Below are positions 50,932-63,912 of a DNA stretch of 64,000 nucleotides, in pieces. The translations under genes and the position numbers were made by a program. The stretch comes from an uncultured delta proteobacterium. Lineage in GTDB: Bacteria; Desulfobacterota; Syntrophobacteria; Syntrophobacterales; Syntrophobacteraceae. The DNA lies in contig CAWEHK010000037.1 in NCBI GenBank assembly GCA_963808625.1, positions 80,157 through 144,156 of the forward strand. The letters run 5' to 3'. Under the pieces are notes generated by a model. It was not told the DNA's origin. It saw only the letters and a program-made list of their open reading frames with translations, and made no database searches. The first letter of the stretch is position 1, and each line of letters begins with the position of its first letter.

Positions 50932-51288
50932 ATGGCAGAAATAAGATCTTATATGGATCTGATGGTGTGGCAGAAAGGGATTGAGTTAGTGGAGGAAGTT
51001 TATAAAATCATCGGGACTTTCCCTAACGATGAACGATATGTTCTCGGAGCACAGATAAGACGCTCGTCCGTATCCGTGCCATCCAATATTGCTGAGGGCC
51101 AGGCACGACAACATACCGGTGAGTTCAGGCAATTTCTCTATGTCTCACTGGGGTCTCTTGCTGAATTGGATACTCAGCTGATAATCGCAAAGAGACTTGC
51201 CTATATTAATGATGAGGCACACAGGATTGTTAGGGAAAGAATTTTCGAGCTTCAAAAGATGCTATCGAGCTTGATAAAGAAACTCTAA
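50932..51288 (+). CDS. Four helix bundle protein (TIGR02436 / 23S rRNA IVP family, Avd-like fold)
   Basis: DL.VWQKG, FP..E.Y.L..QIRRS.VS.PSNIAEG, GSLAEL.TQL; visibly AT-richer than neighbouring genes. Confidence 0.93.
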   Translation: MAEIRSYMDLMVWQKGIELVEEVYKIIGTFPNDERYVLGAQIRRSSVSVPSNIAEGQARQHTGEFRQFLYVSLGSLAELDTQLIIAKRLAYINDEAHRIVRERIFELQKMLSSLIKKL

Positions 51289-54155: not shown

Positions 54156-54853
54156 ATGGACGTCATTCTTGAGGGCTTAAAAGAGGCCATCCGGCAACTG
54201 GTCACCCTTGACCCCGACGTCATCGACATCACCCTGAGAACGCTTCAGGTCTCGGGTATCGCGACCTTCATCAGCGTTTTGATCGGTATTCCGATCGGCA
54301 CGGTCCTGGCCTTGACGCAATTCTTCGGGCGCGGGCTGCTGGTCAGCATCGTCAATTTCGGCATGGGCCTGCCGCCGGTGGTGGTCGGACTGGCGACGTG
54401 GCTCTGCCTGACCCGCTACGGACCGCTTGGCATGTTCGGCCTGCTCTACACGCCGACGGCCATGATCCTGGCCCAGGCCGTCATCGCTTCTCCCATTGTT
54501 GCCGGGTTCAGTCTCGCGGCCATCCAGTCGGTCAATCCCAAAATGCGTCTTCAGCTCCTGGCGTTTGGCACAACCCGCCTGCAATATCTCGCGCTCTTGA
54601 TCTGGGAGGCGCGCCTGGGCATTCTGGCGGCGATCATCGCCGGTTTTGGCGGGGTGATCAGCGAGGTCGGCGCTTCGATGATGGTGGGAGGCAATATTCG
54701 CGGCTATACGCGGGTGCTGACCACCTCCACCGTGCTCGAGGTATCGAAGGGGAAGTTCGAACTGGCCACCGCCTTGAGCATCATCCTGCTCCTGGTGACG
54801 TTTTGCATCATGGCTTCTTGAGCCATCTCCAGCAGCGGGGCAAGAAACCATGA
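54156..54853 (+). CDS. tupB: Tungstate ABC transporter permease (TupB-like), frameshift near the 3' end
   Basis: MGLPPVVVGL, SEVGASMMVGGNI...TRVLTT. Confidence 0.85.
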
Positions 54854-55576
54854 CCCCCTCGATCGTCGCCGAAAACCTGAACCTGTAAGCGCGCCGGGCG
54901 GAACATCTTCCAGATCGAAAACTTGCTCTTCGCCGAGGGAGAAGTCCTGGCCCTGGTCGGCCCCAACGGCGCGGGCAAGACCAGTCTGCTCCTTACCCTG
55001 GCGCTGCTTCAGCCGCCCTCATCCGGGAACGTTACCTTCAACGGTGTCATTGCCGGCAACGGCAATGTCCTCGTCCCTTCGCCGCCGCATGGCGGTGGTC
55101 TTTCAGGACGCGCTGCTCCTGGACACGACCGTCTTTCGGAACCTCACGATCCCGCTGCGCATAAGGGGCGTCACGGCAAGGAAGCAGCAGAGCGCGCGGA
55201 GAAATGGCTCGAACCGCTTCGGTATCGCCCATCTGGCCGACCGCAAGGCGCGGCAGCTCTCCGGCGGGGAAGCGCAGCGCACCAGCCTGGCGCGCGCCTT
55301 CGCCCTGGAACCGGAATTCCTCTTTCTCGATGAACCCCTCGGGGCCCTCGATTATCCCACCCGTAAAGCGCTGCTCGGTGAGCTCGGGTCAAATCCTGAA
55401 GGACATGAACATGACCACCCTGTTTGTGACCCACGATTTCACCGAAATCCCCTATATGGCGTCAACGGGTTGCCGTCCTGTACGAAGGGCGCATCGTCAA
55501 GCACGGAACGGTCCGCGAGGTGTTTGGTGCAGAGCTTCTCGAGAGCAAGGTGTGGACCCCCTGGGAGGTTGACTGA
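54850..55576 (+). CDS. ABC transporter ATP-binding protein (TupC-like), multiple frameshifts
   Basis: [27 protein letters not shown] in successive frames. Confidence 0.78.
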
Positions 55577-58715: not shown

Positions 58716-59078
58716 TCATCTGATGCCAAGGCTGCTCTTCAAGGCACGATCCACGTCAGCCATGATCTCGTCGGGCAGGGTCGTGACCTTTGGCAAGAGC
58801 AGCCTTCTCCTGTCAATCGTTCTGATCTGCGCCAGATTGACTATGGATGCTTTCTTCAAGCCCTGCTCCTCACCGATGGCCACAGCAATCGGAGAAGAGG
58901 CTTTCTTTGCGGAAGACTCGGAAATAACCGCGATAATAATGGTCGCGCGGGAGTAGCGGTTGCCAATGTCGTTCTGAATTACAACCACAGGTCGTGTTTT
59001 GCCCGTTTCACTGCCCAGGACGGGACCCAGATTCGCGTAATATACTTCACCGCGCCTTATTTGCGGAACAGTCACCAT
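58716..59078 (-). CDS. MazF/PemK family toxin
   Basis: RRGEVY, GSE..KTRPVVVIQND, QIRTID. Confidence 0.92.
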   Translation of the reverse strand: MVTVPQIRRGEVYYANLGPVLGSETGKTRPVVVIQNDIGNRYSRATIIIAVISESSAKKASSPIAVAIGEEQGLKKASIVNLAQIRTIDRRRLLLPKVTTLPDEIMADVDRALKSSLGIR

Positions 59079-59093
59079 CGTCCCTCTCCCGGA

Positions 59094-59357
59094 TCAGAGA
59101 TTTTTGGCGTCCGCATAGTTGAAATCCTCAACAGTGCTGAGATTCTCCTCAGCCATTTCAAGGTAGGCCTCCCGCATGCGCTCTTCAAAGATCTGTCGCT
59201 CCGCCTCCTCGACCTTTTGCTCGATCGATTCTCGCACCAGAACCGAGATTTTCTGTCCCTTCCCGGCAGCCACCCGTCGCAGCTTCTCCTTCAATTCCAG
59301 CGGGAGCACCACATGGAGTCTCACGTCCTTGGTTGACGTTTTTGGAGCCATTTGCAT
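59094..59357 (-). CDS. Ribbon-helix-helix antitoxin (NdoAI/EndoAI-like)
   Basis: Directly upstream of the toxin; RLHVVLP..., MREAYLEMAEENL. Confidence 0.8.
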   Translation of the reverse strand: MQMAPKTSTKDVRLHVVLPLELKEKLRRVAAGKGQKISVLVRESIEQKVEEAERQIFEERMREAYLEMAEENLSTVEDFNYADAKNL

Positions 59358-59530
59358 GCCTTTCTTGCGTAAAATTATAACGCAAATCAGGACAGCAAAA
59401 AACTTGTTCAAAAACAATGAGGGTGATTCCAGCTGGTTTCCATCCGGAAACCCACCGGTTGCGTAGGGGCGGGCTTTACGCCCGCCCGAAATCATCAATA
59501 ACTCCGGCACATTTTGGGAGGGGCCAAACC

Positions 59531-59968
59531 CCCATATCCATCAGGCTGAGGGGTTTACCCGAGGTGGATTTATGCCTGCGACCGGTTGCCAGTCGGATGA
59601 TGAATGCCCTGAAAGGGCTTCATAAAATAGCCCAGGGTCAGCAACAGCGCCACCCTGGGAGGGGAAGCCCAATTGCCTTTTCTTTACCCTGAAAGGGTTA
59701 GATAAATTGTTGTGTCGCTATGTTTTATGCAACCCCTTCAGGGTTGATGGTCGTGTTGTACCTGACTCCCCAGGGTGGCGCTGGCGCTGACCCTGGGCTA
59801 ATTTAACCGTATAGGAATTTCCATTTTTCGACAGGATTAACAGGATTATCAGGAAGCGAGTCCTTAATCCTGCAAATCCTGTAAATCCTGTCAAAGAAAG
59901 TTCGCCCGAAGGGCGCTAAGTTCTCGAGCCCCTTCAGGGCAGTAAAGTTAGCTTGATGCATATGGGGT
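59531..59968. mobile_element. TIR-bounded REP-cluster element with a nested 9-mer hairpin insertion
   Basis: Ends CCCATATCCATCAGGCTGA / TTAGCTTGATGCATATGGGG; reverse complement of 63488-63912. Confidence 0.75.
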
Positions 59969-60286
59969 AGACCCCTCCCCTACAGTCCGAACTCAAACAT
60001 GTGCCGTTTTCGGATGAACACTGGCCAGTCTTCGTCTGGAAAGGCGCTGATCGTTTGGTTAGCTCGTCGGGGTGAGTTTGATGCCCGTCCGCAATCTCCT
60101 GTGGTTCTGAGGCATTTGGGAGGGGATAAACCCCTCCCCTACGCTTGGGATTTGATAATGAGGGGTTCGGAATGCATCCGGCTAATAGTTCAAGGCGCAC
60201 TTCCAATGGTCATCGAAAGAATTGGCGGTAATCTCGGATTGCGGATGTCGGAAGGAAGAACCTATTCCTGTCCACGAAACTCCGAT

Positions 60287-60346
60287 GTGGGGCAGGCTTT
60301 CCAGCCTGCCTGAGGATAACGGCAGGCTGGAAAGCCTGCCCCACAC
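60287..60346. repeat. Paired REP palindrome GTGGGGCAGGCTTTCCAGCCTGCC
   Basis: Perfect inverted pair; relative at 43620. Confidence 0.85.
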
Positions 60347-60353
60347 ACCCCTC

Positions 60354-60420
60354 GCGTCGTTGGAGTCGTGTTCAGGCCGCCTGCTACGCGACGGCGGCCT
60401 GAACACGACCCAACGACGCT
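60354..60420. repeat. Long GC-rich hairpin 3' of the NACHT-FGE gene
   Basis: GCGTCGTTGGAGTCGTGTTCAGGCCGCC...GGCGGCCTGAACACGACCCAACGACGC. Confidence 0.85.
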
Positions 60421-60455
60421 CGTCAAGCAACAGCCGGCGCCAAGGGTACAAGGGC

Positions 60456-63441
60456 TCAAGGGCCAAGGGCAACGGACCTGGAGAGGCGAAAGCCCAACGT
60501 TGCTGCGGCGGGCGCCGGGCTCGTAGTAGCGTGCGAATCGCCGACCGGCAGTACTGCGCAACGAGGTTCCAGCCGCCGCCGCGGACCACCCGGCTGGAGC
60601 CCCGTGGGTCATCAATCCAGGGGCCGCCATCATCTGGTGCACCATTGTAGTTGTCATGCCAGTCGTCCTCGGTCCACTCCCGAACATTCCCGTGCATGTC
60701 ATAGAGTCCAAAAGCATTGGGCTCCTTTTCACCGACCGGGTGAGTCTGGTCGCCGGAATTCGCGTCATACCAGCCGGCCTGCTTTAGATCGTCCTCGGTA
60801 TCACCCGTATAATACCGGGTGGTCGTTGCGGCCCGGCAAGCATACTCCCACTCGGCCTCGCTCGGCAACCGCAAACCAGCCCAGTCAGCATAGCGCTGAG
60901 CATCCTCCCAGCTCACCCCCACCACCGGCTGACGCGACTGGTTGAAACGCCGGTCGGCCCAATATTGAGGTTCTGCCACCTTGGGGTTTTCCTTCAAAAA
61001 TCGACCATATTCTTCGTTGGTCACCGCGTAGCGACCCAGGTAGAAATCGCGCACCCGCACCTGGTGCAGCGGTCCTTCAGCCTCAAAACGTCCCTCTTCG
61101 GATTCCGGTGAACCCATCATGAACACACCCGCGGGAATTCTCACCAGCTCGTAGCCGCCCCGTTCCGCAGAGATCACATCCTGCCGCGCCTGTCCGTTGC
61201 GCGTGGCAAACCAGCGACGGATGTCCGGCAAGGGGTGTTGCCGCAAGCCCTGTCCGGAGCTTTTCAACGGCATTGGAATCGATGCGCTCCAGCACCTGCA
61301 GTGCCGCAAACTGCCGCCGCCAGAGCTCCGCATCGTTTCCAGCATCCGTTTCCAGCAATTCCACGAAAGGCTGAGGGCTGGTCTCTGCCGCATCGTCCAG
61401 GCACATCTGCACAAGGTTCGGATATTCGGTGAAGGCCGGTTGCCGAAGCACCTCGCGCATGTATGGCGTGAACAAAGAGGGATCATCAAGGGCCAACAGC
61501 AGCAGCGCCACTTCCTGCCACCAGGATTCCCCGAAGTGGCTTGCCAGCTCGCCCAAAACCTGTGTATCGCCTTCGAAGGCGCGCCGCCGGATCTCCCGCG
61601 CCGCCAGGTATTCTTGGAATCCCAGGTGCATGAAGCCATAGTGTTCCTGGTCCCAACCGGTCAAAAGACCGCTTTGGTCCCGGACGGTGCGCAGGAATTT
61701 CTCGGCGCCGCCTTGCGTCCAGTTCACGGCTTTCAAAGCGGGCTCGAGATATGGCGCGAGTTCCGCCGCTTTCGCCCGCGTCCGCCCTTCCTCGCTGTGC
61801 AGCCAGAGGGCCGCCGGCTGCAGCACCCGCCGCCCGTCCTGGGCACTGATCCCGACCGGCAAGTGTTTGCTCTCCTGCCAATGTTCCAGCAGAACGTCGA
61901 TGCATTCCTCGTAAAGCCGCGCACGCTTGCGGGGCAGAGCTCCACGGTGGCGGTGCACGAGGCAGATGTTGGTCAGCAGCAGAGGGTTGCGCGTCAGTTC
62001 GAACACCCGGCGGGCGCGAAAGTCCGGTTCCCGCAAGCGCTCTGAATCAGGTTTTCGGCCTTTTCCCGGGCGATGCCTTCGGCCTGCTCAGGATCTTTGG
62101 CCAGCCCGCGTTCGACGATGCGATACCAGTTTTGGACAAACCGCTCCACCTGGTCGTCGATCAACGGCCGGATGTGCATTTCGAGAAAATCCTCGCTCAA
62201 TCGCACAGTGGGACTGTAACCCGCAAAACGGCTGGTCACCACAAACCGGCAGCCGGGGTGGGACTTCAGAGCTTCGCTCGATCCACTTCGCAACCTTCTC
62301 GCGTTGCGACAGGTCTGCAACCTCGTCCAGACCATCCAGAAGAAACAGCAGATTCCCGCGTTTCAGGAGGCGCTCACCAAACCCCGGCAGGGTTTTGAGA
62401 TGGGGACTGTCCAGTTGAGCCTGGATGAACGCATCGAGTCCGTGATCAAGATCACGCAGATCCCTCAGGGGCAGGAATACCGGCAGCATCCCTGCGGGCA
62501 GGCCGATGGTCTCGGGTCCCTTGCGCAGGCACCACAATAGCAGCCGTTTGAGATGGGTGGTCTTGCCGGCCCCGGGATCGCCTAGGATGACCAACCCTCT
62601 TCTCCCCCGCATTGCCGACTCGCGGAAAGCTTCCGGCAGGTCAATCTCCTTGGCCGCATCGCACTCCCGGAGGGCTTTTTCGGCATCCGCCGCATCAGCA
62701 AAGCATGCTTCTCCCACTCCTCTCAGGTCCACCATGGCTCGCAGAGGCATGTAGATTTCTTCAATGTCGATGGGCACCTTGAGCTGAGTGACAAAACCGG
62801 CCACCGGCAGGGTGGCATGCAGCGCTTCCGCCTTCTTGCGATAGTTACTGATCTCGTCATCGAGAGCATCTTCCTCCGCCGAATCGCGCGGAACCTCAGG
62901 ACCGATGGCACCGCTTTGGGCTGAAGGCTCCCTGCTTTTGCGCCACTCCTGCAATGCCTGAAATACTTTCGCCTGCAGCGTTGTCTCTTCGAAAAGCGCA
63001 GGCATTTGGTGCTGAGAGAACTTCTTTCTTGAAAGCAGCAAGTTTCTTCTGCTTGTCCCAGCGCTCGGGTTCGGGATCAAAGTCCGCTTCCGTTAAAGGG
63101 CAACTCGGGATTGAGCAAAAACATGAGCCGCTCCTTGGCGGCATCGTACTCCAGTTCGGTGATGGACTTTTTTCTCTTCTTCGGTATCCAGCCGTAGCGT
63201 CCAGCGATGATCCCCACCAGGACATCCGCTTCACGCGCGTAGCGCAGGCATTCTTCGACGGTTGGTCGGTGCTCGCAGGGAAGATTTCCATCCCGTGCCA
63301 GACCATTCCGGCCATGGTGATGGCATCCTGCACCAGCTTGCGCCTTTCCTTGTTGTCCAGGTAGGTGCTCGAGACAAAGACCTTGTACAGGCGGGGAGCA
63401 TCCGAAGCAGCGTTCGAGGGGGTTTTCTTGGCGGTCGGCAT
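60456..63441 (-). CDS. DUF4062 - NACHT - FGE-sulfatase (SUMF1/CLec) protein, several frameshifts
   Basis: KVFVSST, GRYG, ITELEY; GDPGAGKTT, LDGLDE, VTSR, NPLLL, F.HLGFQEY; FMMGS, RLPSEAEWEY, LYDMHGNV.EW, RGGGW. Confidence 0.87.
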
Positions 63442-63487
63442 GGTATCCTCTCAAATCGGGAAGAGGGTCACGGCAGAGGGTAAGGCC

Positions 63488-63912
63488 CCCCACCTGCATC
63501 AAGCTAACTTTTCTGCCCTGAAGGGGCTCGATAAATTAGCCCAGGGTCAGCGATAGCGCCACCCTGGGGAGCCAAGTACAACACGGATATCTACCCTGAA
63601 GGGGTTACATAGATCATACCGACACAACGATTTATCCAACCCTTTCAGGGTAAGGGAAAAAGGGGATTTTACTTCCCCTCCCAGGGTGGCGCTGTTGCTG
63701 ACCCTGGGCTATTTTATAAAGCCCTTTCAGGGCATTCATCATCCAACAGGCAACCAGCCGCAGCCATAATTTCAACTCGGGTAAACCTTGATGATCTCGT
63801 AAGAAGTCATTTCTCGCAAAGTCACACCTAATAAATTCAACCTGTTACGCCATGCAAAAAGGCGATTTTGGGACTTTTTACGAATCCATCAACCTTAGCT
63901 TGTTACATATAG
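63488..63912. mobile_element. TIR-bounded REP-cluster element (inverted copy of 59531-59968)
   Basis: CCTGCATCAAGCTAAC ... TTAGCTTGTTACATAT; paired CCCTGAAGGGG / CCCAGGG hairpins. Confidence 0.75.
63790..63890. mobile_element. 101-bp MITE with a 6-bp target duplication AACCTT
   Basis: TIRs GATGATCTCGTAAGAAGTC / GACTTTTTACGAATCCATC flanked by AACCTT on both sides. Confidence 0.8.

Follow-up and report, generated by a model that had tools for sequence, protein, structure and literature searches.

Does the 3' end of a NACHT receptor gene in a Syntrophobacteraceae-type genome carry a variable region (VR) written by a DGR and, if so, which element wrote it and is rewriting still under way? The question arises from a 64,000-nt stretch of DNA (the window; G000:C37:80157-144156, G000 being the genome assembly and C37 the contig), in which the receptor gene lies 560 nt from the contig end. 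The assembly comprises 4.8 Mb and is 84.6% complete. An original prediction, made from the letters of the window, had taken the 3' end of a DUF4062-NACHT-CLec receptor gene for a DGR variable region, regarded it as rewritten remotely and considered the receptor to be still diversifiable.

Systems of this kind, including the loss of their core to repeats, are already published, and a specialist will not be very surprised by another. Dore et al. 2024 (PMC10907252) described DGR-diversified NACHT/STAND-CLec sensors with remote targets, and loci in which MITE-like repeats had taken the place of RT or template. Cassettes with HRDC genes and remote targets were reported by Wu et al. 2018 (PMC5758913), where the Treponema denticola TvpA DGR belongs to the HRDC-containing architecture C, and Kaur et al. 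2020 linked FGS domains and DGRs to conflict systems. In BPP-1, the function of the target hairpin depends on the sequence of its loop and not on that of its stem (Guo et al. 2011, PMC3240598). DUF4062 has been shown to act as a TIR-like NADase and thereby to carry out abortive infection; oligomerisation is required for TIR activation (10.64898/2026.05.01.722283).

Domain layout of the receptor gene

The gene runs on the minus strand from a start codon at 63441 to a stop codon at 60458-60456 (Table 1). Frameshift-aware alignment covered the full length of homologues P0001 and P0002 at 79-81% identity, with no premature stop. An S-I-T-E-x-E-Y motif is present in the DUF4062 domain (ORF 63077-63502) and recurs in 59 of the 85 homologues that are 900-1150 aa long; going by the wording of the published descriptions, it may hold the catalytic Glu. 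Walker A and Walker B are intact in the NACHT domain (ORF 62088-63080), as they are in 83 of the 85 homologues. The gene thus has the layout by which bacterial NLR-related receptors are recognized, namely an effector, a NACHT domain with Walker A/B and a C-terminal sensor. A PADLOC search gave no real match (best E 1e-4, one homologue).

Table 1 Coordinates of features at the receptor locus and of two further DGRs in the same assembly
Feature	Position	Strand	Remarks
DUF4062-NACHT-FGE/CLec gene	60456..63441	-	~985 codons; Pfam on pieces, frameshift-aware alignment
DUF4062 (TIR-like, NADase-type) N-terminal effector domain	63137..63384	-	PF13271 in two frames
NACHT NTPase domain	62120..62594 (lower end approximate)	-	PF05729 E 1e-10
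FGE-sulfatase / C-type-lectin-fold sensor domain	60456..61150	-	PF03781 E 3.5e-55
DGR variable region (VR), by sequence	60478..60601	-	19 codons vary among six paralogues
Constant IMH-like tail, four CCCTTG copies, includes stop codon	60439..60477	-	common to six paralogues
27-bp hairpin, one bulge, 11-nt loop	60354..60419	-	loop-proximal stem and loop motif recur behind six VRs
Second hairpin, genome-wide palindromic repeat	60286..60345	.	125 arm matches at <=2 mismatches
Dispersed ~270-nt repeat, copy	63514..63787	.	directly upstream of start codon
Dispersed ~270-nt repeat, copy	59552..59805	.	in opposite orientation to the upstream copy
DGR A	C43:93-96 kb (L005, 89.5-100.8 kb)		Avd-template-RT, intact-looking, between two NACHT-FGE targets
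DGR B	C38:17-19 kb (L006, 13.7-23.2 kb)		HRDC-RT-template; RT frameshifted as assembled; no Avd match

The sensor belongs to the fold family of formylglycine-generating enzyme (FGE; SUMF1), and database names of its homologues say FGE. The enzyme has two catalytic cysteines in a GGSYxCxxxxC segment. When a sister domain from the same genome was aligned to human FGE, this segment was found to be shortened and to lie within the VR, and the identification as an enzyme was rejected; the window copy shows this shortening too. Because of this shortening and position, the domain is read as a binding module like TvpA, to which the sensor of the sister gene also has a sequence match (2y3c, E 5.5e-28).

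The DUF4062-NACHT-CLec family yielded 672 matches, with 61 full-length proteins among the best 120. Across 106 homologous tails the hypervariable residues are the same ones as in the VR, which suggests that many members of the family may be DGR targets.

The dispersed ~270-nt repeat that flanks the gene on both sides is found at ~28 genomic sites. Downstream of the receptor gene, a ribbon-helix-helix gene and a MazF/PemK-type toxin form a type II toxin-antitoxin pair (window 58716-59510, minus strand). Elsewhere in the window (50932-51288, plus strand), a gene for a four-helix bundle (Avd/23S-IVP-like, below the cut-off) sits within a heterodisulfide reductase cluster.

A variable region shared by six paralogues

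Six paralogous 3' ends were found in the genome: the window copy, three on contig C43 and one each on C50 and C30. They are joined to different N-termini, being DUF4062-NACHT in the window and in two of the C43 genes, TIR in the third C43 gene and nSTAND1 on C50; the C30 copy has no identified N-terminus. Within the 39 codons of the VR, variation among the six copies falls on 16 first, 15 second and one third positions, whereas the 37 codons just upstream vary at 11 first, seven second and 29 third positions. The difference in third-position variation (1/39 versus 29/37) is highly significant (Fisher p 1e-12), and synonymous and nonsynonymous codon pairs stand at 5:209 in the VR against 189:99 upstream. 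Compared with each of its five sisters, the window copy differs at 13-19 of the 37 upstream third positions and at 0-1 of the 39 in the VR, and on this evidence the divergence of the genes came first and the overwriting of the window copy from a shared template followed.

The variation is almost confined to adenine columns. Adenine occupies just one of the 85 constant VR columns and is retained in at least one copy at 28 of the 32 variable ones; the RGGSW to RGGGW change is itself an A/G column among the six paralogues. With the template of a related intact cassette (genome G063, below) as proxy, 26 of 29 adenine columns are variable among the six copies, as against six of 87 others (p 5e-17), and two further templates each gave 26 of 31 against seven of 85. 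These templates are stand-ins for a cognate template that was never seen, and differ from the VRs at 7-12 non-adenine positions.

The locus therefore combines variation concentrated at adenine columns, a VR at the C-terminus of a domain with the CLec fold (by sequence), a constant tail and a downstream inverted repeat. By every sequence test applied the window region is a DGR variable region, its pattern is the one expected of a remote DGR target, and the assembly contains no complete cognate DGR. Two claims of the original prediction, a VR on a DUF4062-NACHT-CLec receptor and its rewriting as a remote target, are borne out by the adenine-specific differences and by the overwriting after gene divergence, and one half of the outcome it had named as fatal, paralogue mismatches that are not specific to adenine, did not occur. 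Its quoted minus-strand codons are present from 60592 downward, but they read in frame only when two extra bases are skipped.

Constant tail and hairpins

The CCCTTG repeats that had been noted at the gene end (four copies at 60469-60441) and the ensuing hairpin with a stem of about 27 bp were both found. The constant tail also occurs on the targets of the intact G063 cassette and is missing behind templates, and the IMH-like tail differs from the 3' side of the template. The hairpin has a predicted free energy of -37.7 kcal/mol, and none of 200 shuffled sequences was as stable (z -8.45).

Hairpins lie 75-112 nt behind all six VRs. Their stems vary in length (~6 to 30 bp) and in sequence, while a short GC stem and an 11-12-nt loop motif are kept. 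This motif, which was derived from the six loci themselves, has seven matches in the genome, the seventh being in a duplicated tail that has no VR. The duplication comprises the tail and hairpin of the TIR-CLec target and lies 1.1 kb downstream of that target (G000:C43:142.6 kb). Among 18 loci examined, the motif was found behind the VRs of four other genomes (L039, L041, L050 and L057), with near variants at several further loci and none at others. The arrangement resembles the target site of Bordetella phage BPP-1 (PMC3240598), in which a constant IMH is followed by a hairpin, and the variable stem and conserved loop seen here agree with the requirements of that phage; the distance from the VR and the loop length given above set the present hairpins apart from it. 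By analogy, the hairpin may have a targeting role. The second hairpin (Table 1) was ruled out as a part of the element, being a genome-wide repeat.

Intact cassettes in relatives

Strict pattern scans returned nothing from genome contigs and nothing from metagenome contigs. A looser pattern identified 20 loci (17 distinct stretches) in genome contigs, mostly titled Deltaproteobacteria or Syntrophobacteraceae, and four loci in metagenome contigs, at least three of them VR-like. An AAC-rich template lies beside an RT in three of the genomic stretches (L037, L041 and L047). The order is target-HRDC-Avd-RT-template-target in L037 and HRDC-Avd-RT-template-target in L041; L041 is part of G063, whose genome is of the family to which G000 belongs. 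G063 served as a positive control, with an intact cassette and three targets, two of them remote, that carry the same tail and hairpin as the window copy. In comparison with the template, the local target of G063 and one of its two remote ones show changes at 19-20 of 31 adenines and at three of 94 other positions; the third target, 460 kb away, displays the same pattern with ~6 non-adenine differences. At G000:C17:17.9-19.7 kb there is a sequence closely homologous (63-67%) to the N-terminal and NACHT portions of the G063 target.

Matches to the VR were found in four of 60 other genomes. The G063 template region was matched in nine of 80 family genomes, over its whole length in G063 only. An RT search of three VR-bearing relatives gave only group II-like or partial matches, and 14 loci around other VRs held no cassette gene. 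Orphaning of DGR targets may be common in the family. VRs of the same subfamily occur in G007, G018 and G031 (L014, L019, L015 and L016), in whose assemblies a DGR-type RT was not found.

Search for the cognate element in the assembly

A cognate template was not found in G000 by blastn of the VR, by anchor motifs or with the DNA and proteins of three intact cassettes, and DNA and protein searches with those cassettes likewise found no template, Avd or RT of the subfamily. The template copy expected by the original prediction is thus absent from the assembly, an outcome that it had listed as counting against itself. One Avd in the assembly exceeded the cut-off, and there are two HRDC genes of DGR type. 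Of four RT matches, two belong to other DGRs (A and B, Table 1), and two, at C36 and C54, lack DGR motifs and context and were discounted as non-DGR on those grounds rather than from a tree. The C54 match (90.5-94 kb, L007) is a long gene with an RT domain spread over several frames; it does not resemble a DGR RT and is possibly of defence type. DGR A has a transposase-like ORF upstream of its Avd, and a palindromic repeat described below recurs between Avd and template. The DGR B template has just 21 adenines, and several of its positions look as if adenine had been lost.

Two other origins of the variation were weighed. DGRs A and B are both present with CLec targets, and one has remote-looking targets, so either might diversify the window VR in trans. 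However, the six VRs differ from template A at 24-29 non-adenine positions and from template B at 21-25 (in ~105 nt), while template A has 0-1 such mismatches to its two local targets and template B 4-16 to its five likely targets (two local, three likely remote). Neither DGR is therefore taken to be cognate; the tails of their targets differ as well, and on these comparisons action in trans is largely refuted and very improbable. Ordinary divergence of a lectin fold, in which scaffold residues are conserved and codons are GC-rich, or else gene conversion between the paralogues, would dispense with a retroelement altogether. It could appeal to the conservation, at the protein level, of the same scaffold residues in the 106 homologous tails, but protein conservation cannot fix synonymous sites, and gene conversion would not exempt just those first and second positions that fall at adenine columns. 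The codon and column patterns refute it, leaving it next to no probability.

A probable deletion scar on contig C43

Between two of the sister targets on C43, a truncated HRDC gene is followed by a palindromic repeat and then by the last 21 nt of a DGR spacer, where intact relatives have HRDC-Avd-RT-template in the same interval. The C43 HRDC is 57% identical to that of G063, and the match ends at residue 144 of 170 (C43:61211). The palindromic repeat has ~11 copies in the genome. The spacer motif (C43:61117) is identical at 19 of 21 positions to the 3' end of the G063 spacer and is the sole match when up to 3 mismatches are allowed across the 4.8 Mb; none of 400 random windows scored as high. 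The motif was chosen by eye after a looser gapped alignment of spacer to scar had proved non-significant (73, 97 and 293 of 500), and significance holds only for the ungapped 21-mer test against G063. From the HRDC end to the spacer motif is 1689 nt in G063 versus 93 nt in G000. The simplest reading of these sequences is that ~1.7 kb, comprising Avd, RT and template, was likely lost in one deletion. The scar was bridged by no public contig, and no read variation in the VR was obtained (runs with 5-9% of sampled words, contigs only).

Since the cassette core was likely deleted, the VR is probably frozen. We consider it probable, from the sequence comparisons, that the gene's 3' end is a remotely overwritten VR whose Avd, RT and template have been deleted from C43. 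The claim that the receptor is still diversifiable is accordingly not upheld: there is no cognate template, the two templates present do not fit, and the cassette site is scarred.

Continued activity and gene integrity

The near-identical constant columns of the VR mean that rewriting either ended very recently or continues. A cognate template and RT might lie in an unassembled part of the genome, for which the incomplete assembly and the nearby contig end leave room, or a coexisting strain variant might retain an intact C43 cassette; in the system of Dore et al. (PMC10907252), a single DGR locus occurs in intact and in disrupted form side by side. Three indels in 750 nt of VR could likewise stem from mixed reads, but an excess of indels inside VRs is non-significant (p 0.13). 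Against continued diversification, the site of the relatives' cassette is assembled straight through here with both broken ends visible, and the 4.8 Mb contain no further HRDC, Avd, RT or spacer of the subfamily; we regard it as unlikely, though with some real chance. A different objection is that the VR is a relic on a true pseudogene. As assembled, the gene has eight single-base indels, two of them within the VR (extra bases near 60526-60538 and 60498-60504), and its indel density is ~4 times that of nine housekeeping genes of the window taken as controls (eight in 2986 nt versus eight in 11317 nt; Poisson p 0.0015). Each of two C43 sisters has four indels, and the orthologue in G007 carries a stop. 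Six of the eight control-gene indels nevertheless sit in an ABC ATPase (window 54850-55570, plus strand), a housekeeping gene with six single-base indels in 720 nt relative to a same-genus orthologue, which is a sign of patchy consensus error. The receptor gene is free of stops and departs from conserved residues at two of 350 sites, whereas the median for the 61 intact homologues is eight. At four sites outside the VR (61243, 62275, 63024 and 63093), the extra base is missing from low-depth contigs of public runs. A dead receptor with eight real indels is thus quite improbable. The indels are likely consensus errors, and the encoded protein is therefore probably intact.

Discussion

The closest counterparts are the clade 5D antigen sensors of Thiohalocapsa PB-PSB1 (PMC10907252), which likewise join NACHT or nSTAND1 to a C-terminal CLec VR, with several targets that have different N-termini, remote targets and degenerate loci whose RT or template gave way to MITE-like repeats. 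PB-PSB1 is a purple sulfur bacterium, unlike the Syntrophobacteraceae-type genome described here, and the present effector is DUF4062, a term with no occurrence in the text and nine supplement files of that paper. A further difference is that a single deletion here appears to have removed the Avd, the RT and the template at one stroke, with six targets staying behind. By analogy, the receptor may work like a clade-5-type DGR antigen sensor.

TvpA is a surface lipoprotein, whereas the target described here is a predicted cytoplasmic NLR whose cassette core is missing. The TvpA DGR (PMC5758913) is otherwise alike in its FGE-type CLec fold, its HRDC accessory gene and its many non-adjacent targets per template. 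The DUF4062 NADases Swarozyc (10.64898/2026.05.01.722283) and Evangelion (10.64898/2026.06.25.731849) share the Pfam domain and, going by their descriptions, a conserved acidic motif with the receptor; the accessible text of the two preprints mentions neither a NACHT-CLec fusion nor a link to DGRs. In eukaryotes, the DUF4062-NACHT proteins TEP1, NWD1/2 and NPHP3 have the same effector-NACHT order but are described with WD40 sensors. At least eight papers mention DUF4062 together with NACHT. No combination of a DUF4062 effector and a DGR target came to light in the literature searched; bioRxiv supplements, which were outside the search, may list the architecture.

Following known DGR biology, template RNA would have been reverse-transcribed with A-to-N errors, and the cDNA would have replaced each VR under the guidance of the constant tail and hairpin. 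The diversified CLec tip would bind a molecule of an invader, upon which the NACHT domains may oligomerise, and the DUF4062 domains would then deplete NAD+ and kill the infected cell. If so, the DUF4062 effector would offer the antigen sensor hypothesis an easily scored outcome, the loss of NAD+ and abortive infection.

Six probably frozen VRs and a two-ended scar make this genome a clean case in which the record of a lost DGR can be read, and the locus places a NADase-type DUF4062 effector, a class characterized only in 2026 preprints, on an NLR that appears to be DGR-diversified. G063 supplies an intact cassette of cognate type for reconstitution, and the conserved-loop hairpin is a candidate targeting element. 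Taken further, to a proposal that we hold doubtful and put forward tentatively, DUF4062-NACHT-CLec proteins would be a large adaptive family of bacterial NLRs in which one DGR writes ligand specificities into several chromosomal receptors, each with an NAD+-destroying effector. Repeat-mediated excision of the core would be an off-switch that locks a selected repertoire, and the hairpin an address label that could make any gene a target of this DGR subfamily.
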